Assembly: GCA_048213135.1 (NCBI GenBank)
Contig: PS015401.1
Location: 1-64,000, forward strand
Direction: 5' to 3'
Length of the DNA stretch: 64,000 nucleotides
Source of the DNA: Reclinomonas americana ATCC 50394
Lineage: Eukaryota
Made by a program: the position numbers and the translations under genes. Positions 112-57,812 of this stretch are shown here, in pieces; position 1 is the first letter of the stretch, and the number at the start of each line of letters is the position of its first letter. The notes under the pieces were generated by a model, which was given only the letters and a program-made list of their open reading frames with translations, did no database searches and was not told the DNA's origin.

Positions 112-3100
112 TTATGCTGAAGTCGACGGCAACACCGGCGCCGGCTCGGCCTTGTGCGGCTCCAACGTGACCAGCAGATCGCCGGCCGACATTTGATCGC
201 CGGCCTTGGTCACCACGCGCTTGACAATGCCGGAGAACGGTGCACTGACCACGGTCTCCATCTTCATGGCCGACATGACCACCAGCGGCTGGCCCTTGTT
301 GACCTTGCTGCCGACCTCCACGCGGACGGAGAGCACGGAGCCGGGCATTGGGGCGCCGATGCTGCCCAGGTCGTCCTCCACTGCACGCTCGCGGGCCTCG
401 GTCTTGAGTTGCGCCGACTTGTCGGCGACAAACGTCGATCGCGGCTGCCCGTTGACCTCGATGAAGACCTCGCGCTTGCCCTGCGAGTTGAGCTCCGACA
501 CTGCAGTGAGCTTCACATGCAGCGTCTTGCCCTTCTCGATCGGCACGTAGATCTCCTCGCCAATGCTCGGGCCGTTGAGGAAGATGCGAGTCGGCAGCGA
601 CGAAATGTCGCCGTATGTGTTGCGGAACTTGTTGTACTCGTCAAACACCTGCGGNNNNNNNNNNNNNNNNNNNNNNNNNNNNNNNNNNNNNNNNNNNNNN
701 NNNNNNNNNNNNNNNNNNNNNNNNNNNNNNNNNNNNNNNNNNNNNNNNNNNNNNNNNNNNNNNNNNNNNNNNNNNNNNNNNNNNNNNNNNNNNNNNNNNN
801 NNNNNNNNNNNNNNNNNNNNNNNNNNNNNNNNNNNNNNNNNNNNNNNNNNNNNNNNNNNNNNNNNNNNNNNNNNNNNNNNNNNNNNNNNNNNNNNNNNNN
901 NNNNNNNNNNNNNNNNNNNNNNNNNNNNNNNNNNNNNNNNNNNNNNNNNNNNNNNNNNNNNNNNNNNNNNNNNNNNNNNNNNNNNNNNNNNNNNNNNNNN
1001 NNNNNNNNNNNNNNNNNNNNNNNNNNNNNNNNNNNNNNNNNNNNNNNNNNNNNNNNNNNNNNNNNNNNNNNNNNNNNNNNNNNNNNNNNNNNNNNNNNNN
1101 NNNNNNNNNNNNNNNNNNNNNNNNNNNNNNNNNNNNNNNNNNNNNNNNNNNNNNNNNNNNNNNNNNNNNNNNNNNNNNNNNNNNNNNNNNNNNNNNNNNN
1201 NNNNNNNNNNNNNNNNNNNNNNNNNNNNNNNNNNNNNNNNNNNNNNNNNNNNNNNNNNNNNNNNNNNNNNNNNNNNNNNNNNNNNNNNNNNNNNNNNNNN
1301 NNNNNNNNNNNNNNNNNNNNNNNNNNNNNNNNNNNNNNNNNNNNNNNNNNNNNNNNNNNNNNNNNNNNNNNNNNNNNNNNNNNNNNNNNNNNNNNNNNNN
1401 NNNNNNNNNNNNNNNNNNNNNNNNNNNNNNNNNNNNNNNNNNNNNNNNNNNNNNNNNNNNNNNNNNNNNNNNNNNNNNNNNNNNNNNNNNNNNNNNNNNN
1501 NNNNNNNNNNNNNNNNNNNNNNNNNNNNNNNNNNNNNNNNNNNNNNNNNNNNNNNNNNNNNNNNNNNNNNNNNNNNNNNNNNNNNNNNNNNNNNNNNNNN
1601 NNGAGGCCGTTGCGTAGACACCCATGTGTTTTTTGCCGGCGTTTTTTTCACGTACTCACTTGCTGTATGCATGCAGATCCCGAACATTCCGTTCCAGATG
1701 TTGCTGCGTGGCGCCAACGCTGTCGGCTACACGTCGTATCCCGACAATGTAGTCTACAAGTTCTGCGACCTCGCAGTGAAGCACGGCATGGACGTGTTCC
1801 GCGTGTTCGACTCGCTCAACTACATGCCCAACCTGCAACTCGGCATGGACGCTGTGCGCGCTGTTGCGTCACATTGTGCTTGCTTGCCAGCGCGTGTCGT
1901 TTGTAGTAATGAGTTCATTCTCATCGCAACCATGAGTCCAGGCCGGCGGTGTGGTGGAGGCTGCCATCTCGTACAGCGGCGACGTGTCGGATCCCAAGCG
2001 CACCAAGTACAACCTCGACTACTACTTGCGGCTGGCGGAGGACTTGACCAAGCACGGCACTCATGTGCTGTGCATCAAGGACATGGCTGGACTGCTCAAG
2101 CCTTCTGCGGCCACCGTGCTGATTGGCGGTGAGAATGCTTTGCGTGTTTTTGCCCTCACTCGCGTCACTGTCTGCGTCTCACCGCGACGACGCCTGCAGC
2201 ACTCCGCCGTGAGCACCCCGACATTCCGATCCACGTGCACACGCACGACACTGCCGGTGCTGGTGTGGCCGCGATGCTGGCCGCCGCTGCTGCCGGTGCC
2301 GATGTGGTGGATGTGGCTGTTGACTCGATGAGCGGCCTGACGTCGCAGCCGTCCATGGGCGCTGTGGTGGCTTCGCTGCAGAACACGCCGCTGGACACCA
2401 AGGTCGACCTCGACCAGGCCATGGAGCTCTCGAATTACTGGGAGGGTGCGCGCGNNNNNNNNNNNNNNNNNNNNNNNNNNNNNNNNNNNNNNNNNNNNNN
2501 NNNNNNNNNNNNNNNNNNNNNNNNNNNNNNNNNNNNNNNNNNNNNNNNNNNNNNNNNNNNNNNNNNNNNNNNNNNNNNNNNNNNNNNNNNNNNNNNNNNN
2601 NNNNNNNNNNNNNNNNNNNNNNNNNNNNNNNNNNNNNNNNNNNNNNNNNNNNNNNNNNNNNNNNNNNNNNNNNNNNNNNNNNNNNNNNNNNNNNNNNNNN
2701 NNNNNNNNNNNNNNNNNNNNNNNNNNNNNNNNNNNNNNNNNNNNNNNNNNNNNNNNNNNNNNNNNNNNNNNNNNNNNNNNNNNNNNNNNNNNNNNNNNNN
2801 NNNNNNNNNNNNNNNNNNNNNNNNNNNNNNNNNNNNNNNNNNNNNNNNNNNNNNNNNNNNNNNNNNNNNNNNNNNNNNNNNNNNNNNNNNNNNNNNNNNN
2901 NNNNNNNNNNNNNNNNNNNNNNNNNNNNNNNNNNNNNNNNNNNNNNNNNNNNNNNNNNNNNNNNNNNNNNNNNNNNNNNNNNNNNNNNNNNNNNNNNNNN
3001 NNNNNNNNNNNNNNNNNNNNNNNNNNNNNNNNNNNNNNNNNNNNNNNNNNNNNNNNNNNNNNNNNNNNNNNNNNNNNNNNNNNNNNNNNNNNNNNNNNNN

Positions 3101-5871
3101 NNNNNNNNNNNNNNNNNNNNNNNNNNNNNNNNNNNNNNNNNNNNNNNNNNNNNNNNNNNNNNNNNNNNNNNNNNNNNNNNNCCGCAACAGCGCCAGTCGC
3201 TCCCACGGGCACTCACTGAGGAAGCGCAGGGCGACATCAAAAGTAGCACCGCCCCACATCTCCAAGCTGTAGCAGTTGTGCAGCGCTGGTGACACAAGGG
3301 CGATGAGTTGCGGGATGAACTCCCAATCAACAAAGTTCACAACTCACCATGTGCTGTCCACGGTGCCACGGTCAGCAGGTCACGAGTGCGCACACGAGTG
3401 GCCAGCAGCGACTGGAGAGCACGGCTGGTGAGCAGTGCAAGAAGAGAACAATTTGCGTGTGAGTGCGAGACCGCACCTGATGAGCATCGCGGAAGGTGGT
3501 GTCGGTGAGCAGCAGATGCGACGTCTTGCGCACGGCACGAGCGAATCCCTCCGGGCCCTCACGCTCCAGCACCTGCTTGAGGCCGGTCGGCGGCTTATTG
3601 GCAAACGGATCGACAAAGGACGGCAGCACAGGATCGCTCTTGGAGGGCTTCAGATCGGTGCCGAGTGGAGTGGTGACACCATTGACCACCACGTTGGCCA
3701 GGTAGGTCACCAGCTTGTGAGCGCGGTTCTGCGACGTCTTGACGTGCAGCAGCTCCGGCGTCTCGGCAATGAAGCTCGTGTCCACGTGACCCTTGATGAA
3801 CTGCGCGCATGAAAAACTTGTCAGATGCCAAGCAGATGGGCAAAGAAGGGGGAAGGACACGAAGGCGCACAGTGGGGTGGCTGAGCACATTGAGCAGGAA
3901 CGGAATGTTGGTCTTGACGCCACGGATGCGATACTGCACAACAGATGGGATCAGCTCACGCCACCACAAAAAAACAATGTGTCATGTCTTGTGATCACCT
4001 CGACGAGTGCACGATGCAGCTTGGCGGCGGCCATCTCCAGTGTCGACGCATGACTAATGACCTTGCACAGCAGCGAATCGTAGTACGGTGAGATGATCGC
4101 ACCGGCGTAGCCGTTGGAGTCGATGCGGATGCCCATGCCCTCTGCCAGCGCATTGTTAATTGCAACAAGACAAGTATGCGTGAAAAACAGAGAGTGGGGG
4201 ATGCGTACCAGCCGGACGGAACACCTCCAGGCGACCCGTGTCGGGACGGAAATTGGCCTCGGGATCCTCGGTGGTGACGCGCACTTGGATGGCGTGCCCA
4301 TGGAGCGCGACCTTGTCCTGCGTCACCCCAAGCTCGGCCAGTGTGTAGCCCTCGGCGATGCGGATCTGCGTCTGCACAATGTCGATGCCAGTGACTTCCT
4401 CGGTGACCTACACACACACACACACATGCTCCTCAGTGAGTACAGAGACTTGCGAGCGCAAGAGAGCACAATCACAGTCAGCATACCGTGTGCTCGACTT
4501 GGAGTCGGGGGTTCACCTGTGGTGCACAGATCAATACAAACNNNNNNNNNNNNNNNNNNNNGATCAGCATCGATCGCCACCACATGCATGTCAAACAGAC
4601 TGGCAGTGCCAGTGCACGCAACTCACAGCGCCGGTGCGATCCGCGAGGATTTGCACCTCAATGTGGCGCGGGCGCTCAATGAACTTCTCCACAAACATGG
4701 AGCCGTCGCCGAACGCCTGCTTGGCCTCCGAGGATGCACGATTGAATTGCTCCGGCAGCTCCTCCTTGTCGCGCACGACACGCATGCCGCGGCCGCCGCC
4801 ACCCGCAAGCGCCTTGAGCATCACCGGGAAACCAATCTTCTCGGCCAGCGACACAGCCTCGTCTACCGAGGCCACTGCCTTGTTGCTGCCGGGCGACACT
4901 GGAATGCCAGCGGCCTTGGCGGTCTCCTTGGCCACGGTCTTGAAGCCCATCTTCTCGAGAATATCCGGCGGCGGGCCGACAAACGTGACGCCACGACGGC
5001 GGCACTCCTCCGCCATGCGCGGGTTCTCCGACAGGAAGCCGTAGCCGGGATGGATCTGTGCGAAAGTAAAGAGTCAGCTCACAGCGTGGCGCTCACGCAC
5101 AGCTGTGTGACAAAGACGCACCGCCTGGCAGCCAGTGCGCACAGCCACATCGACGATCTGCGACAAGGGATCAGACACTGCGGCTGCTGCACTCTCAAGT
5201 GCAATGCCAGTGACACGCACCTCAGGAATGTTGAGGTAGGCACCGATCGGCGTCTGACCCTTGCCAATCAGATACGACTCATCGGCCTGTGACGAGGGTG
5301 TGTCGATCAGCACCAGCTTTTCGGGACATCTCATGACGGAATGATGAAGAAAGACAAGTGGAGACAGAGAGACAGAGACGCACACTCATACAGAGACACG
5401 CGGTGAGAGCAACGCGCACATAGCGCACGAGCAGAGAACACAGAAAGCGACGCAACACAAAGATTCCCTCTCACTTTTCGAACAGCGCATGATAGTGTGC
5501 CTTTCTCTCTGTGCGTGCGTGTGTCTTGACTGACCTTGGTGCGGTGCATGGTGGTGCTGTCCTCCTGCGAGTACACGCCCACAGTGCGGATGCCGAGCTC
5601 TGCACACGCGCGGAAGATGCGAGTGGCAATCTCACCACTGTTCGTCACAATCGCATCTTAGTAACAGAAAGAGAGCGAGAGAGGCAGCAAGTGTGTGCGT
5701 GTGAGCGAGAGAGTGAGCGCGTGTGTGTGTGACTCACCGATTGGCCACGAGCAGCTTGGTGATTGGGCGGATGACGGCGGGATCGGCGGCCTTGGGCGCG
5801 GTGATGGATCGGCGCTGCTCGCCACCGCGGAGGAGCACATTGGTGCCCGCGCGACGTGCAAGGAGCAGCAT
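112..5871 (-). CDS. PC: Pyruvate carboxylase, mitochondrial (multi-exon, gapped; carboxyltransferase segment 1603-2454 lies inverted on + strand)
   Basis: Biotin carboxylase motifs [37 protein letters not shown] motifs [25 protein letters not shown]-terminal biotinyl domain SAMKMET; Arg/Leu-rich N-terminus MLLLARRAG. Confidence 0.97.
1603..2454 (+). CDS. PC: Internal exons of pyruvate carboxylase on a mis-oriented contig
   Basis: [43 protein letters not shown]; starts GAG GCC, continuing LALLR where the minus-strand contig ends at 3182. Confidence 0.93.
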
Positions 5872-6333: not shown

Positions 6334-7638
6334 ATGAAGCGTGCGCTGATTGTTGTTTTCTTGTTGGTGTGTGTGGCGGTGCTGGTGGCTGCCGCGTCGC
6401 CGGGCCTGCGCGGCAACTTGGCGGCTAGTGATGAGGCAATCGACAGCATGCTAAGCGCGATGCAGGAGGAGTGCGCAGGTGATTTCTCTCTCTCTCTCTC
6501 CCCGCACACATTGAATTTCCGACGCTATTGCGCGCGAAAATGGTTGCGGAGGGCGCGAAAGTGTAAAACAGTAGACTTACGCTGTTTGTTGTTGTCGTCG
6601 TGCTCGTATGCAGACTGCGAGACAGGACCTGAGCCGAGCGACGAGGATTTTGAGAACGGCATCGTTGTGAGCGACGATCCACTGGATGAGGTGCTTGGCG
6701 AAGTGACACCACTGATCACCGCGCCTGGGCCTGTCATCTCTGGCCCCGGCACTCTGTCGGCTGGCACCGCCTCGGCCTCTGGCACCTGCAGCCCGGCGTG
6801 CGACTCGAACCAGTACTGCCTCAAGGGACAATGCATCGACAACACCGTCGTCGAGCAGCTCCTGGCCACCATCGGCAACTTCAGCCCGATTGGCATCTCT
6901 GGCCCCGGCACGCTGTCGGCTGGCACCGCCTCGGCCTCTGGCACCTGCAGCCCGGCGTGCGACTCGAACCAGTACTGCCTGAAGGGTCAGTGCATCGACA
7001 ACACCGTCGTCGAGCAGCTCCTGGCCACCATCNNNNNNNNNNNNNNNNNNNNNNNNNNNNNNNNNNNNNNNNNNNNNNNNNNNNNNNNNNNNNNNNNNNN
7101 NNNNNNNNNNNNNNNNNTGAAGGGTCAATGCATCGACAACACCATGACCAGCACGTTTGCCACGGCCTTTGTGCAGGCGGCGGATCAGAGTTGCGAAACG
7201 ATGATTGGCTGCATTATTCGTGTCTGCACTCTTGTTGGACCTCACTTTCCATGCTGCCTGCAACAGATCAATGCCGCAGCTGCTATTCCAAGTGCGCGGC
7301 CGACGGATATGCTACGATGCAGCAAACGTGCGGCGGCCAGGTCTGTCTGGAGGCTGCTCGCCAGGTTGGCAATTGCATGTTTGGCTGCCGCGACAGCCCT
7401 GCCTGCGGTGGTGCCAATGGTTCCGGCCAGTGCCGCGAATGCCAGCAACAGTGCGCGATTCCGGTACGTGTGTTCAGCTTCGTGCCCTTAACCTGCTTGC
7501 TGCCTGGCCTCACTGTTTCGATTCCAAAAACAGACTGTGTGGTGCTCCACCGTCAAGTGCACCGGCCAGATGTGCGACACCTGCCTGTTCCTGACCAGCA
7601 AGTGCTTCCAGCGCTGTGGAGATGCATGCGTGGCCTAA
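6334..7638 (+). CDS. Secreted cysteine-rich protein with tandem 53-aa repeats
   Basis: Signal peptide MKRALIVVFLLVCVAVLVAAA; three inferred introns; repeat containing CSPACDSNQYCLKGQCIDN; C-terminal CxxCxxxC clusters; TAA at 7636. Confidence 0.75.
6736..7143 (+). repeat. 159-nt coding tandem repeat, at least 3 copies, interrupted by a gap
   Basis: Near-identical units start at 6736 and 6895; part of a further unit at 7118-7143. Confidence 0.9.
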
Positions 7639-9529: not shown

Positions 9530-10525
9530 GTCGATATGCGACGACAGGCCGTGTACTTTGAGGCGCTCTTCAGGTGTCATGAGTGGCAAGGCAACGGGAA
9601 CATTCCGCTACTCAATGCCCATCACATTGCACTCATCATCCGCCTGTACGATCGTTGCGTGCTACTGCTGCTGCACCGCGAAGAGCGACTGTGTACTGAA
9701 GTCATGCACCACCACACAGGCGAGTTCTTCCACGGCGCCATTGGCGAGCTCTTTGAGAAGCACCAGTGCCAGCTGTTTGTGCACTGTGTGGAGGCCATGC
9801 CGACGCAGGCTGGTCATTACTGCCGCAACGGCCTGGCACATCACATTGCCGTGTGTGCGCCAGTCGTGCTGTCGAGCTTTGACGGCTCGAGCACTGCCAA
9901 TGCGTTCACCACTGCCACCACCACCACTGCTGCCGCCGGTGCTACAGCGTCGCCACTGGTCACTGCTGCTGCGCCTGCGTCGGCGTCACCCGCGGCGTCT
10001 GTGATGAAGCAGCGCATGTGGACGGGCGAGTGTGGCTGCGACGACGATGCAGGCTCCGTCACCATGATGGACGACACCGGCGGCATGTGGGACGACGAGA
10101 CGCCTCGCACGGAGCCGCTGTACGTGTGTGGCCACGCATGCACTAACAGGCTCGAGGCTCTCTTGCTGGTGGTGGAGCACGAACTGGCGCACTTGTTGTG
10201 CCTGTGCAATCACCAGCACGCCGTCGACAATCTGCACGGCCCGGAGTTTGAGGCGGTGGCCTACGCCTTCTTCCGACACTCCAGCTGCACACACCAGCTC
10301 AAGACTGGCTGGGACCTGGCCAGCGCCATGACCTCCTTCCCTCGGCAGTCGCGCCCCGAAACCGTGGTCAGCGTCGTCGCCTACGACTACCAAAGGTGCG
10401 GTGTCCATTCGCTCCGCCACTGTGGTCTGTCCCATCCTCACTGTCTTGTGCAACAGGTACCGCCAACTGGCACCATGAACGTGGCCACCGCTGCCGCACC
10501 GATTTTGTTGTCCATCCCCCTATAG
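9530..10525 (+). CDS. SprT-like HExxH zinc metalloprotease domain protein
   Basis: CTNRLEALLLVVEHELAH followed by HGPEF and FFRHSSCTH; upstream LYDREFFHG after removing in-frame intron 9654-9719; 3' end approximate. Confidence 0.75.
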   Translation, partial: VDMRRQAVYFEALFRCHEWQGNGNIPLLNAHHIALIIRLYDRCVLLLLHREERLCTEVMHHHTGEFFHGAIGELFEKHQCQLFVHCVEAMPTQAGHYCRNGLAHHIAVCAPVVLSSFDGSSTANAFTTATTTTAAAGATASPLVTAAAPASASPAASVMKQRMWTGECGCDDDAGSVTMMDDTGGMWDDETPRTEPLYVCGHACTNRLEALLLVVEHELAHLLCLCNHQHAVDNLHGPEFEAVAYAFFRHSSCTHQLKTGWDLASAMTSFPRQSRPETVVSVVAYDYQRCGVHSLRHCGLSHPHCLVQQVPPTGTMNVATAAAPILLSIPL

Positions 10526-11856: not shown

Positions 11857-14800
11857 CTATTGCCAGACAAGCGGTGTGTCCACCCACTCACCATCGGCAT
11901 CCTCCTCATCGCCGTGAATAAGCAGCATGCGATTCTCCTCCACCGCTTCGGCATTGATGTTACCGACAATCACGTTCTGAGGACGACGCAGAGCCACGCG
12001 ACGGCGCCATCGCACCAGCAGCCACACGACTATTGCAACCACTGCGACGCCGACTGCACATGACACGCCAATCACAATCCACTTCCACACCGGAGGCGAC
12101 GGTATTGGTGGATCAGGTCCAGGTCCTCCACCGGTCGTCAACACACGCACGTTGGCCGACGGGATCGACTGGCCGTACGAGTTGATGGCGCGCACGTTCA
12201 CCACATACGGTGTGCCAGGCTGCAGGTTCGCCTGAGTGAACGTGTAGTTGGCACGCGATGACGACGACGACGTCGACTCGGTGGCGTTCTTGTAGCTGAC
12301 AATCACGTTGCCACCGCTCTCTGGAAATACCTGGATCTGGTAGCTGGTGATCAGACCGAGACCAGTGTACACCGGGGTCGAGAAGTTGATGGTGATTGTC
12401 GTGTCAGACACAGCACCCTGAGTCGGCGCGGCCGGAGCGGCAGCCTGGCCCGTCTGGGTCAGAGCGCCCTGAGTCGGCGTGCCAATGTTGTTGTTGGCGG
12501 TGCCCTGCGAGCCCTGGCCGAGGCCGACCGTGTTGCCACCGATCAGCACCATGCGGTAGCGCGACGACGGCTTGATGGTCTGGAACAGCTGCACGCAAGT
12601 GCCGGCAATGGCCGGGTTGGTGCCGCTGCCGAGCACAGCAGTGTTCATGCCCAGGCCGTCAGCGGCGGCCGGGTTGCCAGTCGACGCCAGGAAGCGGGTC
12701 GTCCACTGCCAGAACACCAGGTAGTAGGTGGCGGCCGCAGTCGTGCCCGAGCCCACCGAAGTCCACGACACGCGGTACTCGTTGGCGGCGTAAAAGTCCA
12801 GCGACGGGGTGCCAGCAGCCGGCACAATGCCAGTCGTGGTCACCGGTGACGCCTGGATGTAGATCGACAGCGAGTTGTTGCCCGTGCCAACCCAGTTGGT
12901 GGCGTTGAGGAAGAAGCGGTAGAAGTTGCCGTTCACCACCGTCACAGATGCCCTGGTGTCGATGGGACCCAACGCCACCGTCGGGCTCGACGCAGTCGTG
13001 CCCGACGTGCCAGTCAGAGCCTGGTTAGAGATGGCAGTCGACGCGCCAGTGGCGGTCGTCCACGAGAACGTAATCGCCGTGCCACTGTTGCTGATCACCG
13101 CAAAGTTGGTTTGGTCGTTCGGCACCTGGCCCGTCAGCACGTTGTTGTTGAGGCCGTTGCCGATGATGCCGTCACCGAAGGTGGCCTGAGTGGTCGAAGT
13201 GCCAATGCCGTTGATGCCGCGCACATCGATGAAGTAGTTAGTGGCGTCAGTGAGGCCGCGGATCACAGCCTGCTGCACCGAGGTGGTGTTCTGGGTCAGC
13301 GTGCTGGCCGTAGCCGCGCGCCACGACACCTGCCACTGGTTCACGAAGCCCTGGCCGCCAGTCTCCTGCGGCTGTCCCCAGCTGAGCCAGATCGAGGTCG
13401 AGCGCTTGAGAAGAAGGTTCGACGACAGCGATGTGATGCCGCTAGGACGCACAGGCGACGTGGCCGTGGTGATGGTGATGGCCGACGCAGACCAGGCAGT
13501 CTGGTAGCCGTTGAACGACGCCACGCCAATGCGGTACTTGGTGTTGGAGGTCAGGCCGTTCACCAGCAGCGTCGTGGTGGTCCAGCCGAGCGAACCAATG
13601 ATCTGGTTCACAAACGAGTCCGGCACGAAGGCGGTCGAGGTGACGTTGGTCAGGTTCTGCACCAGCACCTGCACGCCGACGTAGTTCGAGAAGCCGTCCG
13701 AGGTGGCCAGCAAGTACTGCGTGCCGATCGCCGTCGACGGGGTCGACAGCGTGAAGGTGGCGTAGCCGGAGCCAGTCGTGCCAGCCGAGCCGCCAGTGGT
13801 CAGAGCCGGCAGCGGGTACGGGCGCACAATCGAGTTGGCAATCTGCGACAGAGTGCCCGACTGAGCACCGTTCTGCGTCGAGGTCACGCCAGAGTCCGAG
13901 CGGGTGTTGGTGGCCTGCACGGCGTAGGTGTACGACTTGCCCGGAATGGTCGGGAAGTTGAAGTTGGTGGTCAGCGTCGTCCACGTGTAGGTGCGGTTGC
14001 AGTTGCTGGTTTTCTGCGTCACAACGTAGCCGTTGATCGAGGTGCCACCAATGCCAATCGGCGACGCCCACGAGATGCTGGTGATGGTGTCCTGGTAGCA
14101 GTTGCCAGAGAAGCCCACACCGAGGGTACCAGCCACGAAAGCGCATCCGGCGCTCGAGTTGGTGCCCTGCGAGTTCGCAATACCAGCAGCCAGCGTCGGG
14201 GCGGCCGGGGCGATCGGTGCGTCATCTGTGTGGTGGAAAAGGGAACAGGTGGATGAGATACTGATATTCAAAAGAAGCAGATGGTTCCGCGTCTATCTCC
14301 CCCTATCCCCTCTCCTGTCCTCTTTCCTTTCCCCCCTTTCACGCAACTGGTGTTGTGAGTGGTCTGAGTGATCGGACCAGCAGCCGTGGCCGAGTTGGTC
14401 GACGTGGCAGCGGCGTACACCTGGTACGTGTACGACGTGTTGGCCGTCAGCGTCGTGTCGGCAGTGTAAGCGGCGGTCAGCGCCCAGCCAGCCGGCAGGG
14501 TCACCGTGCCCACAGACACCGGGGTCGCGCTGCCCTGGCCGCGGAAGATGGTGAACACCGTCACGGCATCGGAGCCAAAGTTCTGCGGAATCGTCCACTG
14601 CAGGAAGATGTTGGTCAGGCCGTACTGCGTCACGACCAGGTTGGTCGGCGGGTTCGGCACGACACCGGTGGCAGCCGGAGTGGTGAAGTTGATGGCAGTG
14701 CTGAACACGCACGTCACCGGGTTGGCGGCAGTGCCAGCCGGGTTGAAGGGCGACGTCGGGAAGGCAATCGAGAACTGGTTGCTGGCGCACACCTGCAGGT

Positions 14801-17800
14801 TGACCGAGGTGCCAGCCGGCAGGCCAGTCACGTCAATGTAGTAGGTCGACAGGTTGGCGTTCCACGATCCAGTGCCAGTGCCGTTGGTGGTCGGGATGGA
14901 GCTGGTGTCAATGTTGACGGCAAGGCCTGCAGTGGCCGCAGTCACCGACGAGGCGCTGGTAGTGTAGTACACCACACGGTAGGCGCTCACGTTCGGAGTC
15001 GGGGTCGTCACGTTGCCCTGAGTGGCACTCGAGGTGGCAGTGTTGGAGCCGCCGACGCTGATCGGGGTCGAGAAGTTGAGGCGCACGCCAGTCGAGAACA
15101 GGCGCGAGTACGCCACGCCAGTGGGCGCAGCCGGCACAGAGCCGTTGTTGTCGGTGGTGGCCTGGAGGGAGCCGGCCGCCGAGGCAGTGGTGTTGTTGTT
15201 CACAGTGACGCGGATCTTGGTCGTGTACTGCGTGGCAGCCACTAAGTTGTTGGCGGTGCCGCTCACAGTGAAGCCGGTGATCTGCTGGTAGAAGCCAGAG
15301 TTGTACGAGAACAGGCCGAAGAACGAGGTGGCAATGTTGCCGTTGGAAGTCACGCCAGTGGTGATGGCAGGCTGGTCAGTGCTGGCGCTGGTCACCTTGT
15401 AGGCGGCCGTCGGCGTAGCGCCAGTGTCGCCAGTGCCAAAGGTGGCCGGGTAGTTGAAGGCGACGACAAACGACGTCGAAGTGACCTGGTCCACAGAGCC
15501 AGTGTACGGAGCCACCGTGTAGCCAGTCGGCGTGGCCGGCGCACCGGACGCCAGGGTCACAGTCACGGCGGTCGAGAAGGTCAGGTTGGCACCGTTGGCA
15601 CCCGGAGTGCCGCTGCCGTTGTTGTAAGCAGTCGAGATGGCGCAGCTGGTGCCAGTCAAGCCAGTGACCTTGACGAGCACGCGATTGCGCGACAGACCAG
15701 AGCTGCCGGCCGGGATGCTGAAATCGGTAAGGTCGCCAACGGTGGTGACCACAGTCACCGCACCGGTGCCGCAGTCCGACTTGACGTACCACGAGGCAGC
15801 GCCAATCACACCCACGTTGGCCGCCACACCCTCCCACTCCACCCACGCCGAGGTCGACGTGACGTAGCGCAGGTTGGACGACAGCGTCGGCGCCGCAGTC
15901 GACACCTTGGTGGCATCCGAGCCGCTGGTGGTCAGAGTGCCGCTCCAGGCCGCAGCCGAGCGGTTCACCTGCGACTCAGTCCACACGTTGATGGTGTAGC
16001 CCTGGCCAGTGGAGGCACTGGCGGCCGCAAGAGTGGCCAGAGTCACACCGCGCCACGCACTGGACGAGATGTTGGTCTTGGTGACAGTGGTGGGACCAGC
16101 GTCGCCGACCAAGAACGCGCGGTAGGCAGTGGTGCCGGTGGCGAGGTTGGTGGTCTGCAGTACGGTGATGGTGGTGTCAATGTCCTGGAAGGTGCTGGCA
16201 GTGGCACCGACGGCAGAGTTGGAGGAGAGACCGCCCTGGCCGACGAGATCAGTCGGCAGCTGCAGCCAGATGGTGGCCTGGGTGCTGCCAATATAGTAGA
16301 TGGCGTTGGAGCTGGCGGTGGTGACCGGAGCGCGGTCTATATTGAGGGAAGGAAGTAGGAAGTGTGAGCTCACCAATGGTGAGAAAATTAATGAGAGAAA
16401 AGAGAAAGTGGGCGGTGCGCAACTGGTGGCAGTCCAGAAGTTGGTGCCAGTCGGTGAGGCGGGGTAAGACGAGTTCGTGCTGGTCGCATTCCTGACGGAG
16501 AATCTAACTTGTGGGAAGTACTGACGGCCGGGAAGGAGGCCGGAGAGGGTGACCTGCCAGCCGTCGAGGTGGCCAGTGGCCGGCTGGTCGTTGTTGGCCG
16601 TGGTGGTGAGGCCCGACAAGACAAAGACACCACGCAAGTTGGCAGAGCCAGTGGCAGTAAACGCGTAGACGCTGGCGGCAGACGAGGCGTTGACGTTGGC
16701 CTGGTTAGCAACGTACTGCGCCTGGGCGGCGGTCAAGGTGATGACGAACGTCAGCGCGGTGTCGGTGATGTCGATGACGGTGATAGAGTTGGCAGTAGCG
16801 AGTTCGCCAGCGTTGCTGCCAGCACCGGAGGGAGTAACTGCCGTGGTGACGGCGGTGACGGTGGCAGAGTACGCGGTGCCACCGGCAATGAGATCAGGAG
16901 GCAGGGAGAGGTGAAGAACATCGCCAATCTGATAGTCCTGCCCGGGTGCACCGTTGAGCGCTGACGCTGCACCACTGTGGTCAACAGTAATCAGCAGCGT
17001 TGCACCCGCACCACTACCACTGGTCGTCGTGGACACATTGTTGTACAAGCTTGATGTACCGTACCCAGTACCACCGGTGGTGTTACTCAGCATTGCAATT
17101 GCACCACCGGTAACCGAGGCAACCTTCACCGTAATCTGATCGCCAACGGCCGGAGTCGGCAAGTAGGCGCTCCCACTTTTACAGCCTCCTCCGCCGCCCA
17201 GAATTCTGAATGTGTCATTCATCGCGTAGCCAGAGCCACCGCTGTTGATGGTGACGGCGGTGATGGTGCCGGTCGGAGAAACAACGACATCGACCGTCGC
17301 ATTAACACCAGTGCCAGTAACGGCAGTGGTGGCACAACCGACGTATTTCTTGCTGAAGCTGTCGCTTCCGGCAGTTACAATCAATGATGCAACACCGTCT
17401 AAAGTGGCATTCGATTGCGTGGCACTTGCGGAACAACAGTAGAGGCGCGCAGAGGCCCCACCACTCACCAATGTCCAACTCACACCAAATGTAGTGGTCG
17501 TTGTCGGCGTGGTTCCACGGATCGCCACCAAGAATTTGGAAGCACTCAGTGCAGTCGTCGCAGTGTTTCCATCAAGATAAGCAAAATCCGCGGCCACCAC
17601 TCCATTGTTGCCAGCAGATGTACCGGCGACGAAGCCAATGGCGTTGACACCACCAATAGCAGTGCCAGTGGCGGCAGTCGCCACCACACCACGCTGCTGC
17701 GGGGAGCCGGCGTACAGCACGACGAAATTGACACCAACAGTGACGAATGCATTGATGGAAGTTACGGCATTTCCAGCACGGTCATACCAGACAGCGCTTC

Positions 17801-23100: not shown

Positions 23101-24636
23101 ACACCACCAAATCTGCGACCAAAGAAGAGCAGACGCTGTGCAATGAGATACACAAAACACGAAAAACGGTCACCCCCGATACATGCAGACCGATAGATGT
23201 TGAACATGACGCCAGGTGCGAGACTCTGCAAGAACAGTTGCATGGCGCGCTTGGCTTCGCGGATTGGTCCACCACTCATCGACCCACCTGCAGCACAAAA
23301 TGAGCGATGACGATTGCACATGCCACTCCTTCACAGCATGCCAACGCAACTGCAGTCCAACAGGAACACAATCTCCGTGTTGATCTCCACATCCAGGTTG
23401 GCATCCAACGCCGGGGCAATCGTCACACACACCGCCAGTTCCTTGTCGGTGCCCGCCAACGCCGGGTCCACCTCCACAGAGACAGCAGGCACTGATGCAT
23501 TGTTCAATGTTGGCCAACAAGAGAAAGAAAGAAAGAGTGACAGACAGCAGCGCACCTGGCAGCTCCTCCAGTGTGAATGATACACACAGGTCGCTGGCAA
23601 ACGACTGTCGCACGTCTTCCAGACGCAGTGTGGCCTCGTTGTCACGCACATCGGTGCTGTGCATTGCGTGATTCTCCGATGTCACATTGGTGATGACCGA
23701 CGGCATTGTGGCCTTCACATCCACCGACGCGCAGAACCGACGCAGCACACCAAAGGCGGTCTCTATCTCCACTGCCTCCGGTGCAGACGAGCCGGCCTCA
23801 CTGTCGACACCGAGTGAGGGAGAGGTGCATCAACAAGGGAAAGAGAGAGGGAGGGAGAGAAATGCAACTCGCGCTCACGCAGTGGTGGCAGCAGCGACTT
23901 GGAGACGACAAAGACGAGGTTCTTGGCCAGTGCATCGGCCTTCAGCTCCGTCACGTATGTGATGCACACGGTGGCCTCGTGTGTCGGATCCAGCCGACCA
24001 ATGTTGACCTGTGTGTGAACGACGAAATGCACGATGGTGGGCGATCGAGTCAGCAGACAACACTGTCTCCTGGCAGCGACGACGCAACAGTGTAGGTGAA
24101 TTCGTCACGCTTCTCGACCATGAAGGGTCGATGTCCGGCCGCAATGGCATCGTCGTAGCGCTCCTGCGCCCGCTGCTTGGCCTCCACAGCGCCCTGCAGC
24201 GATCAGAATCACAGATTAGCTAAAAATATCATGGCGTGTGTGATCAACTGGCGACACGTAGCGCACTCAACTCGCAACACCCGCCCATCAACCTGCACGG
24301 CAAAGTCGCACACGGCAGTCTTGCGGTCACACGGGAACATGTATGTGATCTCCAGCGGCGTGTCAGTGCGATTGGCGTACACCTGGATGCACGTCACTCG
24401 CGCCGTCGCGCCCACAATCTCCGCTTGCACATGCACACCTGTGCCACAGCGAGGACGGAGAGAGAGAGAGAGACGGAGGAAGAAGTACACGAGTGAGACA
24501 AGTGCTTTGAGTGTGAAAGGCGGAAAAATGACAGCCGTGTCGCACCTTCCACAGGCAGCACGCTCTTCCCCGCTGGCACTGTGGGGTCCTCGTAGAAGAG
24601 GCCCGCAATGGGCTGCACAAGTGTTGGTTCCTCCAT
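20159..24636 (-). CDS. VIT + von Willebrand factor A domain protein (VWA5A-like)
   Basis: VIT: YMFPCDRKTAVCDFAVQVDGRVLRGAVEAKQRAQERYDDAIAAG, YTVNIGRL; vWA MIDAS EIVFLLDCSGSMSG, DLGGTNL, LFVLTDGEV, WSIGIG; C-terminal EWQLIFNKG. Confidence 0.9.
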
Positions 24637-47762: not shown

Positions 47763-50700
47763 TCGCGCACTGGCCAGCTACCTGCTCCAGTCAGTGGACA
47801 GCGTGACCGCGGGATCATCCTCAGCAGCAGTCGCACCGCCACACTCCCGATCGCAACGCTCGCCCTCGCCGCCTGCGCTGCTGGTCACCACCAACTCACA
47901 GACGAACCTCGCCCGAGCCTACAAGGCGTTTGGGCAGACCACGTCCAATGTCATGCCGCAAAAGTTTCGTAACACCCTTGCGATCGTCGTGATATCGGAC
48001 AGTCGCTGCGGGTTCGGAGACAGAGAGACCGAGAAGAAAGCATCCTCTGATCTGTGTGTTCCGACCTCTTTTGGGTCTTGCACTGACCGTGTATTCGTGT
48101 CACGCAGACGACAGCGTCCAGTGTCCGCAGTGACTGCTGCGGCACCTGCAGCTGGCACGGCGAATGGCCTCACCGACAGTCGAGTTCGTGGGGCTGGCGG
48201 TGCTGCGGCCTCGCGGTACCATCGTCCCGGCAGTGCGGTCACGTCGGCATCGTCGGCCAGTGGCAAACGATCGCCTGGTTGCGTCTTTCCCCTTTCCCCC
48301 CTCGTTCTCCTCACCGACGCCGTGTCTCACTTTTCACACCATTCGCAGCTCCGTCGATGCTCTTTCACGGATCGTCGCTCTCGGCGACCTCGTCGTCGTC
48401 ATCGTCGATGCCCGTCAGTCGTGCACGTGCGAAGCGAGCACGAGAAAAGGCCGAGCAACGCATCGCTAGTTATAGTGCGCGGGGTGCCGAGACTGCAACA
48501 GCAGCGGCAGCAGCAGCGGGTGCGGAGCAGGAGAACACGCAGCCAGAGGTAAGCCATGCCTCTTTGTCGTCCATGATCATGCTCGTTTTTCTTTGTGTTG
48601 GCTGACGCCGCACGCATGCAGTCGACCGCCGTCACCAAGGCAGCGAGTCCAGCGGCTGCTGTCGCTGCGGCCGCGCTGGACGAGGCATTGAAGATTGGAG
48701 GGACGAGCTCCGAATCCGAGTCGTCGTCCGACGATGAGTCCGACAGCGACAAGGGCAGTGAGAAGCGACGGACGTCGGTCACGCCGCCAGCGCGTGCGCC
48801 AAGTTTCACCGCCATGCGGCCGGCCGACATTGTTGTGGACACACCGACACCCGTGGCTGCACCGCCAGCAGCAGTGGCGGAGAAGGAACAACAGCAGCAG
48901 CAGCAGCAGGCCGCTGCAAGTGATAAGCGCCGCCGACCGGTACGCACACACTACTGCCTCTTTCATTATGCCCACCTGTGCATCTGATTGACTCTCTTTC
49001 TCTTTCCCGTGGCCAGCAGTCGCGACAGGAGCGTCATCGGTCGCTGAGTGTCGACTCGCTTGGCGTGCACTTTGCGGAGCCGACCGCCAACGGCAAGGCC
49101 AACAACGGCGCACAGTCGCCGAGTGAGACCACCACGGCCAGTGGATCGCAAAAGGGCACACAAAAGACAAACGAGCGCACCTTTGAGGATGTGACACTGG
49201 CCACTCGGCAACGCAGCGCCAGCGCCTCGTCCGTGCTTTCATCACCGACCGTAGGGCAAAAGGTCATTCCTGTGGTGAGTACGCGTGCACGTGCGCGCGC
49301 CCCGGCCGTGTCTGCGTTGCTCATTCTCGTACACAGCCGCAACATCGACCGAGCTCGCGAGGGAGCAGCACTGGAGGGGATCATTCGCGCCGTGCGAGCG
49401 TGCAACGAGACGACATTGAGCGCGAGTTTACCTTGCGCCTCGGTGCCGGCGGTGGCACCGGTGGTAACATTCCGTGGCTTGAGTCCTCACCCAGTGGCAC
49501 TGGCGAGGCGGGCGGTGTGCCCCGCCTGCATCGCATGACGCCATCTCCTGAACGTCGTGGTGCGTCGAGTTATTCTCGCCACTTGCACTCATCGCCGCCG
49601 CTCATTTCTTTCGCTTCTGCGAGAACAGGCCGGAGCCGCACGCGTGATGTGATTGAGCAGTCGAGTCATCCACGCACCGCCTCGCGGTCACACAGTCCGC
49701 TCGACTCACCCGGACAGCACTACTCCAGCCGCTTGGGTCGTCTGGTCAACAGTTTGTCGGTGTTCGATCCCGAGTTCATGGAGACGCCACTGGAGAAGAT
49801 TGTCAAGCGCCGCAAGCGTGTGGTGCAGCAACAGGCTCCTTCGCAGCAACAGCAGTTTTACACGGCCTCACACACACCGAAAGCCGCCAGCCGCACTGAT
49901 TTCGACACCGACAACAAGTCGTCTGTATCGTCGCAACCAGGCGATGGTGCGTGATTCTTGCCTGGTTGACAGCGCATGCATGAGGTACTCATTGCACCGT
50001 GTTGCAGAAACAACGCCCGATCTGCTCTCCACCTCACCCGCCCCTCGATCGCGCAACAAGTCGTACGGTGACTCGGGATTCACATACGCGTCGTCCATTT
50101 TGTCGCCGCCCTCCAGCGTTGCGTTCTCCGCAGTCAGTCTCTCTCTCTCCTCCTGTCTGTTGACAGTTTCCTGTGATATCGATTGCAGCAAACAACGCAG
50201 CGAGGGCCAGCCGCGGGACGTCCCCAAGTGGTTTATGAGGAGACCACGGACTGGACGCAGACCAAGAAGGCCGACGTGCTGGGCGTCTTTGAGGCTTTCT
50301 GCAATCAGCCGCTCGAATTCATGGCCGAGTGTGGCATCTACATTCCCCACACGTGCCTGTTTTCTCAGGGACAGGTCGGTTTCTTTCTTTGTTTCGAAGC
50401 TCATTCCGTCGTCAGTGTCTCATCCGGCTGGTAGATTGTTGTGTGGTACCACATGGAGGGCAAGATGATCAACCGTGTGCTCGGATCCACCGTCAATCGG
50501 CGCGACATTTACCAGGCGTTTGTGCCGAAAGATCTGGCCTCGGACGACGAGATTGTTGCTGTGCTCTTGCACCAAAAGGAGACCGACGGCGCCGAAGGAC
50601 AGGCACACTCGACGTACCTCACCGCCGCCCAACTCGGTGCGTCTTTCCGTGTGTCACGTGATTGCTGTATGTTTGTGTCTGTGCGATATTGACCGTGTAC

Positions 50701-51757: not shown

Positions 51758-51959
51758 GTTGCGTTCTGTTCTCTCGCCTGCCGACCTTCTGCTGATNNNN
51801 NNNNNNNNNNNNNNNNNNNNNNNNNNNNNNNNNNNNNNNNNNNNNNNNNNNNNNNNNNNNNNNTGCTCGGGATCTTTACAGAGAAGGAAGAGGTGTATGT
51901 GTGTGAGTGCATGCACGTTCAATGGCACCACGTGCAGTGCCAACAACAACAACACAAAC

Positions 51960-53048
51960 CTCGAGTTAGGAGTCGCACTGGAGGCGCGAGGTTTCGGCTC
52001 CTCCACCGCCACTGGAACCGCTGGTGGTTGTCTCTTCTTGAACAGACTGGAGGGGCTGTCGGCGCCCTTGATGAAGTCGATAAAGACGTCGGATGCCACG
52101 TACTTGAGGTTGCTGTGTTGCGAGATGGTGAGCGCTTCGAACACCAACAACACATGCATACATATGCTCGACTCACCTGTCGTTGTACTCAAGACAACAC
52201 GAGATGCACACGGGCACCGTCTTGCGCAAAAAGTCGTTCTGTCCACGCAGACGGTAGTATTCTTGTGGGAACTCGGCCAGATCCTTTTCTGCCTTCAGAA
52301 TGAGAGCAGGTGGTGGTGTGCGGTCGCGTGGATCCGTCGACCGGACGCGTCGTACTGGAGTTCGACTGCTGGCGGCTCGTGACGACGTGCGAGACGAGTG
52401 CTGAGCAGACTGTGTCGACGACGCATGATGCTGGTCCGGTAGGTGTGGTACGTGCATCTTCAAGTTGCCCGAGTGACTCGATCGTGCCGAGGATGCCCCA
52501 GATGCCTCGGAGGACTAATGTGTGTGTGAGAGAGAGAGAGAGAAGGGAGGGTGAGTACGATTCTACGCAGTCGAATGCAGTACAGAGGTCGCAACATCGG
52601 CGGTGTTGCGCTTGCCCGGTGTGAGGAAACCAGAAGCATCAGCGCCACTGGGAACTGCCAGCTCTCGCTCCTCCTGCTGCAGCGCGGCGGTCTCGTCGGC
52701 CACGCGGCGTCGACGCTCTTCCAGCATGGCGGCCGTGCGTTGTGCGCGTGGGGAGAACGGCTTGGACGTCAGGCTGAGGTGCATGAGGGTGAGGTCCTTG
52801 CCGGCCACGGGATCGGCAGAGGCCTCTGATCGCGCGCTGCTTGAAATGTGCGGCAGCGTGTCGGCGACGGCGGTGCTGCTCTTGGCATTGGCTGTCGACG
52901 GTCTCCGTATGGAAGCTGCACTCTGCCGCCGAGAGCCATTCACCGAGCGATTGGCGTCGCCCTCGACTGAACTGCTGGACAGGTTCGGATCGGCGGCAGC
53001 GTCGGTGGCCGCCTTCCATTCCGACAACCGGTGATCATGCGCTCGACT
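51960..53048 (-). CDS. Continuation of the 47.7-kb gene on an inverted contig
   Basis: Acceptor before SRAHDHR matches the phase-0 donor at 51758; contains EYYRLRGQNDFLRKTVPVCISCCLEY. Confidence 0.6.
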
Positions 53049-54212: not shown

Positions 54213-55289
54213 NNNNNNNNNNNNNNNNNNNNNNNNNNNNNNNNNNNNNNNNNNNNNNNNNNNNNNNNNNNNNNNNNNNNNNNNNNNNNNNNNNNNNNNN
54301 NNNNNNNNNNNNNNNNNNNNNNNNNNNNNNNNNNNNNNNNNNNNNNNNNNNNNNNNNNNNNNNNNNNNNNNNNNNNNNNNNNNNNNNNNNNNNNNNNNNN
54401 NNNNNNNNNNNNNNNNNNNNNNNNNNNNNNNNNNNNNNNNNNNNNNNNNNNNNNNNNNNNNNNNNNNNNNNNNNNNNNNNNNNNNNNNNNNNNNNNNNNN
54501 NNNNNNNNNNNNNNNNNNNNNNNNNNNNNNNNNNNNNNNNNNNNNNNNNNNNNNNNNNNNNNNNNNNNNNNNNNNNNNNNNNNNNNNNNNNNNNNNNNNN
54601 NNNNNNNNNNNNNNNNNNNNNNNNNNNNNNNNNNNNNNNNNNNNNNNNNNNNNNNNNNNNNNNNNNNNNNNNNNNNNNNNNNNNNNNNNNNNNNNNNNNN
54701 NNNNNNNNNNNNNNNNNNNNNNNNNNNNNNNNNNNNNNNNNNNNNNNNNNNNCCACCAGCACGTGCTCAGTCGGCGAAACCCGCACGACGCGTGCAGTTG
54801 GATACCACAGCCTCCAGCTCGTTCTTCTTGACACAGATGAACACGTGAACAGTGGGGAAACGGGGGAGAACGGAGAGTGAATATGTGTTTTGCAGTGTTT
54901 CACTTTTTCTGCTTCTTCAGCGGCGGTCCAGTGTCCGCAGCTCCAGCACTGTTTTCACATGCACGAGCACCACACGTCAACGGTTGATGGAAACACAACA
55001 GAGATCACGACACGCAAGGCACGCAACGCTGGTCTCTTGCCACCGCCACCGAGCGCAAACGAAATCTTGGCCTTGCTACTGGAAACCGCACCTCCGGCAG
55101 CAGAGGCAGTAACAGCAGCAGCAGGAGGCTTGGGTGCGCCACCACTGTCGGCCACTCTCCGCTCATCGGGACCGGTGGCACCACTGATGGCGGCCGCTGC
55201 GGCCGCAGCAGCAGTAGCAGCCGCGGTGGATGCACCAAGTGACGACACCGCCGACGACGGCATGTACNNNNNNNNNNNNNNNNNNNNGA

Positions 55290-57812
55290 TGAACCCGAGC
55301 CACCCAACACATCATGCTCCCAGTGTACGACAGCGGCGTCCACCGACGCCGTCATGGGATTGATGAGCGGGAGCATGAGACCGCCTTGGCCGGCGGGGAC
55401 ACTTGCACGCAGCAGACGGAGTTTCTCCGTCATTTCCTTCTTCAGCGCCTCGTACAGCTTGCTGGCCTGCACACGCATGATCGTGAGACACGTAAGGGGA
55501 AGTAGCGAGAGGCACTTATTTTTTGGCCTGCACCTTTTCCGTACGTCCACTGGTGACAGCCATCCAGTAATGCCGCAACAACTCGGAGCACATGCGAAAC
55601 ACCTTGTGCACAGTCTTCATGAACTTACGATCGGCCTCGTCGGTGGACTCTGCCGCAGCGGCTGCACGCTTGCCGAGACCAGCCAGTGCCTGCTCCTCTT
55701 GCGACTGTCGGTACAGCGCCGACAGCGACGACGCGCAACTTGCGGTGTGCAGCAGATTCGTGCGCAGCATCTGCGTGCGCTCGGCAGTGGAGCGCAGATG
55801 CACGCCCAGTCGCGTGCATGCCGCCAGGCAAGCCTGTCATCCGAATACACTAGTTGAGCAACACGCATGCACTCTGTCAAGAAATAAAGCGCGTACCTGT
55901 CGCGTCTGGAACCGCTTGGCTCGACTCTGTGCCAGCATGGGCGCAATGGTCGCCGAGTTGGAGACCACGGCCGAAGCAGACTTTTTTGGTGTCTGTGACG
56001 ACGATCCAGAGGCAGTGGTCGTTGTGGTCGTTGTCGACGATGATGCAGAGTCGTACGCACTGGAGCCACTGCCTTCGAAATACATGGAGGGGTTCTCGAT
56101 GTTGAGCACTTGGAAGCGTGCCGAGTCGTCGTGACGCACCAGGTCGTCGATCACCGGCGCCAGTTTGCTTCTGTGACCCAAGCGAAGAATTGAATGAGCA
56201 CCACACATCCTTCCTACTCGCGCGCACACACACACGACGACTCAACTGTTCCGGGTGCTTCTCCTCCTGATGGGCACTGTTGATGACCAGCGATGACGAA
56301 TGATTGTAGAGCGCAAACAACTCGGTAGTGAACTCGTCGGACGCTGCGGCCGAGCTGGCCGATGTGGCTTGCGAGCCGATTCCCATCATCTGCTCCTTGT
56401 TGAACTCGCCGCGAAGACCATATCCCTGCGAGAAGCAGAAAAGTGAGCTTGTATGTGTGGGTGTGCATCTTGAGTTGAAAGCAATCGCACCGGTCCAAGT
56501 GACTCCTCGCGCAGAATGTCAACACCCGGGCGCACCTCGCCCGGTTTGGCCTCCAGATGACGATCTGATGATCCACACACACACACATGTGAGTGTGCAG
56601 TCGTCGACGACAGACAGCAGACGCAAAACGCGTGGATGCCCAACGCAACGGTGCTTATCGGCTGTCGATTGCACGTGCGTGCCGCCGGCTTCGGAACGAG
56701 CACGCTTCGACAGTCGATCGAAATCCTCCACACTCAAGTTGTCGGGCAGGAACCAGAAAAAGTCGACCTTGAGGGCCGACTGCCAGAACTGTTGCTCGCT
56801 CATCTGCGCATGCATTCACACACGGTGGGGTGGGTGGGTGGCAGGACGATGAATATCAGGCGACCGACAATGACACACACCACCAGCGGTACTTTCTGCT
56901 CATAGTCCTTCTTCAACTGCGGCTTGCGGGCGAAAATGTGCTGAATGACCGCCGGGCTGATGGACAGGCGCTTCTGGATGATGGTGTTGGGCGTGCCCAC
57001 ACGAGCCGAGGTCACCACACCGTCGGGTCCCACAGTGACCGAGGACCCGGCGGTCGTTCTGGTGGTCGTGGTCGTTGTCGCTGCAGCCGACGACTGCCCC
57101 GATGACGACGACTGTGGCGCGACACCGCGCGCCTGATCGTGACTCTCCTGCGCCTCCACCATGCGCCAAAACTCGTCCTCAGTCATGGCCTGCGACGACA
57201 CCAGTTGCTCATGCATCTCCCGCAGCGACCGATCCGAAGCCAGACGATACGCTCGCACTCCCACAATGTCTTTCTTCTCCTTCTCCTTGTCAGCACTCGC
57301 AGCAGCAGACGACGACGGCGCTGTCGCTGCAGCCAAGGCCGGTGTCGGAGGATGCCGCTTCCGTCCGAGTCGAATGCTCTCCTTTAGTCGCTCCCGGTCG
57401 GCCAGCGTCAGAAACGCAATCACAAACGAAGGTCCGGCATTCAGCGTCATCTTCATGCGAAGATCCGAGTCCTTTTTCGCCACCGAGTGCGCTGCGCACA
57501 TGTCAAAAACAGAGAACAGAGTGAGACAAGTCAAACCTGCAATGGAATTCTCCAATGAGCGCGCACGCAACTGTTCAAATCCGCAAACAACACACGCGTG
57601 GAGTGCCCCGCCGGCGACAGCTTGTTCCCCATGGTGGCTGCAATGCGTGCAGCGGCGGCGCCCATGGCGCCCATGTCGTTCACCTCCACCTGCTCTCCAT
57701 TCGCGTGCACCAAGGCCGACTGCCGCACAAACGTCACATCGGCGTCTCGCACGACCAGCGCACCCTCGACCCCGTCACGCGTGCACGGCGCCGTGTCGAG
57801 AGCCTCGCTCAT
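55290..57812 (-). CDS. GTF2H1: General transcription factor IIH subunit 1 (p62/Tfb1); stop probably in or near gap 55268-55287
   Basis: N-terminal PH-like region; BSD domains LASDRSLREMHEQLVSSQAMTEDEFW and IFARKPQLKKDYEQKVP..MSEQQFW; C-terminal ELLRHYW. Confidence 0.85.

Follow-up and report, generated by a model that had tools for sequence, protein, structure and literature searches.

Sequence and protein-homology evidence for an abundant class of one-base-displaced 5′ splice sites in a 64-kb stretch of the Reclinomonas americana genome

In this work, we have used protein-to-genome spliced alignment and ab initio gene modelling to examine the 5′ splice sites (donors) in a stretch of 64,000 nucleotides of the genome of Reclinomonas americana ATCC 50394 (contig PS015401.1 of assembly GCA_048213135.1, positions 1 to 64,000 of the forward strand). 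We refer to this whole 64-kb stretch as the window, and all coordinates are counted from its first base. By the evidence of protein homology and reading frames, a large number of ordinary GT-AG introns of this organism do begin with GTTGCG(T) or, less often, GTTGAG(T). These donors, which together with the introns that they begin we call the class, carry one T more than the commonest normal donors and lack the G that usually ends the preceding exon. We favour the reading, which could well be right, that the normal consensus G|GTGCGT is read at these sites one base out of step.

The draft sequence of the window is interrupted by 18 runs of N, and its determined bases are about 58% G+C. Codon bias is strong, A occupying 5% of third codon positions, and the genes are split by a great many very short introns. 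DNA sequence, reading frames and protein homology are the basis of the analysis throughout. Introns were placed in conserved genes with a spliced aligner (BLOSUM62) that is blind to the donor motif, since it accepts any GT...AG interval of 35–800 nt at one flat penalty; it cannot detect non-GT donors. Homologues were gathered by searching with single open reading frames (ORFs) of the window; a 45-amino-acid ALDH (aldehyde dehydrogenase) exon, which served as the first protein query, gave no match at E ≤ 0.001. For the ALDH gene we aligned eight of the 150 homologues listed, of at least 400 amino acids and with three long multi-stretch ones excluded, and for the LTA4H (leukotriene-A4 hydrolase) gene 12 of the 120 listed (six from fish, six other). 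The VIT-vWA gene was aligned with all five of its matches, and the pyruvate carboxylase gene with E. coli AccC and three bacterial genes carried on plasmids, taken from 113 matching records. Pfam and NCBIfam profiles of single ORFs identified exons, the profile edges being too loose for junctions.

An intron entered the homology-anchored set when it was placed by half or more of the homologues, or by the ab initio model together with one or more homologues. One of two equally backed alternatives (33450 and 33470) was removed, and donors 34401 and 24271, which fell below the entry rule, were left out. The resulting 66 introns belong to the ALDH (25), LTA4H (21), pyruvate carboxylase (14) and VIT-vWA (6) genes. 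The ab initio gene finder, a frame-aware dynamic programming procedure, initially gave every GT the same donor score and then re-derived its donor, acceptor, composition and codon tables from its own output. Its donor table spans +3 to +6 only, so that the exon-side statistics are unbiased. Re-estimation of this kind (expectation-maximization) may amplify a frequent hexamer, and for this reason we put the main weight on the homology test. A union set of 149 introns combines 53 homology-anchored and 96 ab initio introns.

An initial annotation, made from the letters of the window, had listed 35 donors of this kind and estimated that they begin roughly a fifth of the introns. At all 35 the claimed hexamer is present at the first intron base (32 GTTGCG and three GTTGAG), with T at +7 in 27, and the estimate agrees with both of our sets, since the class comprises 13 of the 66 homology-anchored introns (20%) and 32 of the 139 introns of the ab initio model. 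The homology-anchored set contains 12 GTTGCG donors, when the product of the per-position frequencies predicts 0.32; GTTGCG is thus the second commonest donor hexamer, after GTGCGT (16/66) and before GTGAGT (7/66).

Our results further show that the motif is chosen when nothing in the method favours it. The motif-blind alignments use 64 of the 846 GT sites in the aligned spans as donors, and these include 13 of the 20 GTTG[CA]G sites on the sense strand (hypergeometric p = 4e-11); in the ALDH span all seven such sites are chosen. Forbidding any single class donor lowers the alignment score by 7–32 units. The 15 class introns that homology places begin with GT and end in AG, and removal of the intron restores the frame of the conserved protein. 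The first ab initio pass, with its flat donor score, already put GTTGCG at the head of the donors (eight of 123 introns, GTGCGT following with five), and this hexamer again ranked first after convergence, with 29 GTTGCG and three GTTGAG among 139 introns; 24 of the 35 claimed donors were recovered. Over both strands of the window GTTGCG occurs 83 times, against 36 copies expected from base composition and 60 from a dinucleotide or fourth-order Markov model. Modelled or claimed donors account for 38 of these copies, and the 12 that lie antisense to modelled genes include none with T at +7.

Donor consensus, exon side and intron body

The initial annotation had described the class as the commonest normal donors, GTGCGT and GTGAGT, with one T added, so that the conserved G and T come to lie at +6 and +7, and this description was borne out. 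In the homology-anchored set T follows the conserved G in nine of 13 class donors (at +7) and in 35 of 47 normal donors, that is, those with G at +5 (at +6); the corresponding figures in the union set are 21/30 and 64/88. At +7 itself T is found in only 10 of the 47 normal donors. The class therefore shares with the G|GTGCGT and G|GTGAGT donors that are ordinary in GC-rich genomes the downstream block GCGT or GAGT, as well as all the other intron features measured, and differs from them by the additional T after GT and by the missing G before the cut.

The exon side provides the sharpest separation. G at −1 occurs in none of the 13 homology-anchored class donors, as against 36 of 47 normal ones (Fisher p = 4.8e-7), in two of 30 against 60 of 88 in the union set (p = 1.6e-9), and in two of 30 against 44 of 70 donors with +5G in the ab initio set. 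Among the 35 claimed sites the last exon base is other than G in 34, as had been claimed, the exception being 29321. Donors of the normal register that also begin with GTT behave differently, as the initial annotation had noted for GTTTGT and GTTCG, because GTT[T/C]G donors follow G in eight of ten cases. In the union set the −1 position of the class (A 10, C 11, G 2, T 7) resembles the normal −2 position (A 29, C 22, G 16, T 21) and not the normal −1 position, and its −2 position is poor in A, as the normal −3 position is.

Outside the donor, the class could not be told apart from other introns. In the union set the median intron length is 73.5 nt for the class and 70 nt for the others (p = 0.64), and base composition is alike. 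A branch-like YTNAY motif lies 8–60 nt upstream of the acceptor in 27 of 30 class and 77 of 88 normal introns, at a median distance of 24 nt in the class; C stands at acceptor position −3 in 29 of 30 and 78 of 88, respectively. Elements of the CTCAC/CTGAC type are present in both groups with the same distance and acceptor. Such likeness suggests that one spliceosome removes both groups, and it argues against either U12-like introns or a repeated intron family of recent origin. In an all-against-all blastn comparison of the 149 introns, class members shared only low-complexity matches and no common intron body, and no intron-body k-mer was enriched after correction for multiple testing. We also observed, post hoc, an excess of (C)ATTG(TG) at +7 to +25 in the class (nine of 30 against six of 88, p = 0.0025 uncorrected), for instance after donors 22591, 1863, 34023 and 28061.

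Two candidate explanations were rejected on these data. An introner-like repeat family was discarded since the copies have no similarity beyond the splice signals. U12-type introns, which are marked by an RTATCCTT-like 5′ motif and a TCCTTRAY branch motif near the 3′ end, were discarded as well, because the 5′ motif of the class differs and there is neither an enriched branch k-mer nor a distinct branch signal.

Pairing register and competing accounts

We propose, with middling confidence, that at these genuine donors the normal consensus is read in a +1 shifted register. In this arrangement the small nuclear RNA (snRNA) that normally pairs with −1G, +1G, +2U, +3G, +4C, +5G and +6U would sit over +1G, +2U, +3U, +4G, +5C, +6G and +7U, with +2U as a mismatch within the shifted pairing. 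The cut would stay in front of the sole GU, and the exon base before it would take the role that −2 normally has, so that there would be no reason for it to be G. Downstream, +6G and +7U would assume the roles of +5G and +6U, and the later contact with U6 would need to accommodate a conserved G lying one base further from the cut site. The composition of the exon side favours a shift over a bulge because a bulge keeps −1 opposite C9 of U1, while a shift puts +1G there. The initial annotation had left the choice open by speaking of a shifted or bulged register; the first half of that phrase fits the likeness of the class −1 to the normal −2, and the second is disfavoured by the loss of the preference for −1G.

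Several points weigh against the shifted register as stated. Cleavage at these GTs is placed by protein homology and reading frame only, and a single 64-kb window, with four conserved genes, supplies all the counts. When the canonical U1 5′ end, taken as printed in PMC4856993, is paired in silico with the donors, the predicted duplexes average −1.16 kcal/mol in the class and −5.34 kcal/mol in normal donors; pairing of +1G with C9 is predicted in seven of 30 class members, and no register dominates. Moreover, the class is narrower than a normal donor plus T, since GTTGCG is nine times as frequent as GTTGAG, which would pair better with canonical U1, and no donor reads GTTGTG. The ratio GTTGCG:GTTGAG:GTTGTG is 27:3:0, as compared with 30:14:16 for the corresponding GTG[C/A/T]G donors, although the former ratio comes partly from the model trained on its own output, and in the homology set alone the difference (10:1 against 15:8) is not significant. 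As the predicted duplexes are weak and GTTGCG outnumbers the better-pairing GTTGAG 27:3, a plain account in which canonical U1 simply shifts is, by these duplex predictions, incomplete.

The strongest of the alternatives, which we regard as possible though doubtful, is that in this lineage the cut site is routinely chosen independently of the register in which the snRNA pairs, either through a co-evolved, non-canonical U1 5′ end (perhaps with the ACAGAGA box of U6) or through a dedicated U1 or U6 paralogue. A co-evolved U1 would read GCGU strongly and tolerate a mismatch opposite +2U; alternatively, the paralogue would read GUUGCGU. For example, a U1 carrying G5 and C6 would match GUGCGU perfectly and GUUGCGU in the shifted register with one mismatch. 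Besides the low value that canonical U1 yields for the class, the +4 position of the normal donors (C 38, T 29, A 17, G 4; n = 88) is mostly unable to pair with canonical position 5, and a changed U1 would also explain why the class so strongly prefers C at +5. When 16 hypothetical variants of positions 5 and 6 were compared, G5C6 came out best for both groups of donors (−8.96 and −6.59) and predicted the shifted register in 19 of 30 class members; this calculation is circular, however, given that the best variant is the complement of the consensus. To our knowledge the U1 5′ end hardly varies across eukaryotes, which speaks against such a change, as does the fact that GC-rich algae have donors of the GTGCGT type alongside a canonical U1. 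A scan of the window with Rfam found only one tRNA (46104–46186) and no snRNA gene within it.

We judge improbable a bulged register, in which U1 would pair normally with +1G and +2U, one U (+2/+3) would bulge, and +4 to +7 would pair as +3 to +6 normally do. It would give the identical shift of G and U to +6 and +7, and a +2/+3 bulge register does occur at human 5′ splice sites according to Table 3 of Tan et al. 2016 (PMC4856993), which gives 68 predicted and 54 curated sites. The human sites and the class thus have in common one extra nucleotide between GU and the downstream pairing block. As far as that source goes, however, the human sites are few, and the model expects −1G, which faces C9 of U1, to be kept, contrary to the exon-side counts given above (0/13 in the class). 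In addition, the bulge is predicted in only three of 30 class members, both with canonical U1 and with the best hypothetical one.

Slightly less probable still is a historical relic, according to which one intron-generating element or mechanism with the 5′ end GTTGCGT inserted after bases other than G, and the motif persists because it is adequate. The extreme intron density of the window (about 30 introns in the ALDH gene and 21 in the LTA4H gene) would fit such an origin, and so would intron positions that seem to differ between the two VIT-vWA paralogues, although this was not a systematic comparison, and the weak post hoc excess of ATTG. The intron bodies, on the other hand, are without similarity beyond low-complexity runs and without k-mer enrichment that survives multiple testing, the class matches other introns in length and composition, and an origin of this kind would leave the need for a recognition mechanism.

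A separate class with its own 5′ signal, in the manner of the minor spliceosome, we hold to be very unlikely. Like U12-type introns, the class is a discrete minority (about one intron in five) in which the 5′ motif is rigid and −1G is not preferred, but its 5′ and branch motifs do not match those of U12-type introns, and its CTCAC/CTGAC-like elements, branch distance and acceptor are those of normal introns. Least likely of all is an artefact of hand or automatic gene modelling, in which the hexamers would not be donors: eight of the 35 sites have the hexamer as their only support, three more lie in in-frame stop-free candidates, and a gene finder trained on its own output can reinforce a frequent hexamer, but motif-blind alignments choose these sites in four unrelated conserved genes, and the flat first pass already puts GTTGCG first.

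Individual sites and their genes

The initial annotation had given its 35 donors as an exact list. What stands of it is the abundant class without −1G; the full list does not, only 15 of the 35 being fixed by homology. A further 11 are backed by the ab initio model only, 28228 by one homologue, and eight by the hexamer alone.

Seven of the homology-placed sites lie in the ALDH gene, on the minus strand, and the best-scoring ALDH alignment holds all of them. The introns at 37298–37376 (GTTGCG, first base 37376; score loss of 26 if the donor is forbidden), 36535–36604 (GTTGCG; loss of 15; missed by the ab initio model), 35825–36131 (GTTGCG; loss of 11) and 33966–34023 (GTTGCG; loss of 18) are each placed by six of the eight homologues. 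For 36781–36846 (GTTGCG; loss of 10) the donor is found in six and the acceptor in four of the eight alignments, 34482–34539 (GTTGAG; loss of 32) is placed by five of eight, and 34329–34401 (GTTGCG; loss of 19) by two of eight, with the best alignment among them. The best alignment of the whole gene (33760–37470, minus strand) has to fit 30 introns into about 3.7 kb; the ab initio model has exons down to 8–12 nt. In the LTA4H gene (30.4–33.7 kb, plus strand; 21 introns in 3.3 kb), which aligns better to fish than to bacterial homologues, the GTTGCG introns at 30851–30930 and 31111–31170 were placed by all 12 homologues, with losses of 19 and 7, respectively.

Two VIT-vWA paralogues lie head to head, at 21410–24636 on the minus strand and 26400–29400 on the plus strand. 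In the first, all five homologues place the GTTGCG introns at 23288–23350 (loss of 10) and 22507–22591 (loss of 21). The intron at 24009–24088 (GTTGCG; loss of 14) is placed by two of five, including the best homologue, and by the ab initio model, and that at 24194–24271 (GTTGAG; loss of 9) by two of five, again including the best homologue, the ab initio model having taken 24292. The second paralogue (26.4–29.4 kb, plus strand) is too diverged for alignment, and only the claimed GTTGCG donor at 28228–28233 appears in it, once, in one of five homologues; it is absent from the ab initio model. An intron lies inside the vWA metal-site motif of the first paralogue, and in the second it is apparently in a different place.

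The pyruvate carboxylase gene is broken up by the draft assembly. Its minus-strand part from 5772 to 3182 corresponds to residues 1–604 of the homologue; the continuation, residues 605–813, is found on the plus strand at 1603–2453, and residues 983–1149 on the minus strand at 654–160. The contig piece 1603–2454, which stands between N gaps at 655–1602 and 2455–3181, is inverted in the scaffold. On this inverted piece lies the plus-strand GTTGCG intron at 1609–1676, fixed by two codons, as 1603–1608 and the exon from 1677 correspond without a gap to residues 605–606 and 607 onward of the bacterial protein. The GTTGCG intron at 1863–1941 (plus strand) is placed by three of three pyruvate carboxylase homologues.

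Among the 11 sites backed by the ab initio model only, eight are needed to keep the reading frame: 29321–29382 (plus strand, GTTGCG, the sole claimed donor after G); 50118–50188 (plus strand, GTTGCG), in an uncharacterised gene of 15 exons; 56565–56649 (GTTGCG) and 56171–56246 (GTTGAG), both on the minus strand of a gene with weak BSD-domain matches, which is possibly TFIIH p62-like; and 19262–19346, 19075–19138, 18531–18603 and 14226–14347 (all GTTGCG, minus strand), in a giant fn3 gene. The other three are in-frame, stop-free candidates that could be coding, namely 16337–16423 (minus strand, GTTGCG, 87 nt) and, more weakly modelled, 7190–7396 (plus strand, GTTGCG) and 41219–41290 (minus strand, GTTGCG).

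Of the sites with the hexamer alone, four are on the plus strand: 9654–9659, which neither the ab initio model nor the alignments backed, 26806–26811, 28520–28525 and 51758–51763, the supposed intron of the last containing an N gap at 51797–51863. On the minus strand are 42145–42150, 52590–52595, 57566–57571, in whose place the ab initio model uses a GTGTGT donor at 57595, 24 nt upstream and in the same frame, and 38098–38103 upstream of the ALDH gene, whose supposed intron spans an N gap and microsatellites. This N gap lies together with long microsatellites of (AAG)n, (AG)n and (GAGT)n at 37820–38631, separating the first homology-supported ALDH exon from the claimed first exon with donor 38103.

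The ab initio model, and no other evidence, proposes eight GTTGCG/GTTGAG donors beyond the 35, three of them in in-frame, stop-free introns. They include GTTGCG introns at 62120–62193 (minus strand), in a bacterial-type GlyRS gene, and 48278–48348 (plus strand); the remaining predictions are 58784–58927, 24744–24908 and 28061–28109 on the plus strand and 20573–20632, 21717–21785 and 54949–55027 on the minus strand. The GlyRS gene itself (glycyl-tRNA synthetase, glyQS-like, 61358–63268, minus strand) has introns and is of bacterial type also by an ESM Atlas search with an exon; it is presumably organellar.

Some further features of the window may be mentioned. An 81-nt tandem repeat of 6.8 copies (29617–30164, plus strand) lies within a long alanine-rich exon and holds four sense-strand GTTGCG copies with G at +7 that are apparently unused as donors. 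A long ORF at 43259–44392 (minus strand) gives a weak reverse-transcriptase (RVT_1) match and is probably a retroelement remnant. At the edge of the window, a cullin C-terminal neddylation domain is encoded at 63691–63999 (minus strand).

Relation to known registers and significance

Non-canonical U1 registers comprise a few hundred human sites together with minigene experiments and are regarded as exceptions. The shifted (+1) register was reportedly described by Roca and Krainer in 2009 at atypical human 5′ splice sites, and the bulge +2/+3 register by Roca et al. in 2012. Both registers have been validated in human cells, according to the portions of Tan et al. 2016 (PMC4856993) and of a review (PMC9311317) on which we rely. 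As far as these sources go, the human shifted register resembles the class in having GU followed by an extra U-type base, with the conserved G/U one position further downstream, and U1 is thought to lie one base out of step there while the cut stays at GU. The human sites are rare in the same sources, whereas here the class makes up about 20% of introns, and only one donor hexamer is commoner than GTTGCG. In addition, GUUGCGU pairs poorly with canonical U1 in any register, and the class is known from sequence, as opposed to the suppressor-U1 and RNA work available for the human sites. A full-text search of the literature collection at hand for GTTGCG or GUUGCG as a donor, judged by the match listings, returned nothing relevant, with primer-type matches at most, although a genome paper on the organism could still mention it. 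The class is set apart from the known registers by its abundance and by its narrower sequence.

What would such donors mean for the organism? About one intron in five would be mis-spliced here by gene finders trained on a single position-weight matrix, and donor models need an extra class. A genome with about 20% one-base-displaced donors would show that evolution can adjust, on a large scale, how far the conserved G lies from the cut site, and would offer thousands of natural substrates for studying how U1, U6 and Prp8 fix the cleavage site. It would also allow us to ask whether snRNA 5′ ends co-evolve with donor motifs, and whether introns switch register during evolution. If a co-evolved or paralogous snRNA turned out to be responsible, R. 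americana would possess a spliceosome with an evolved, non-canonical 5′ splice-site code.

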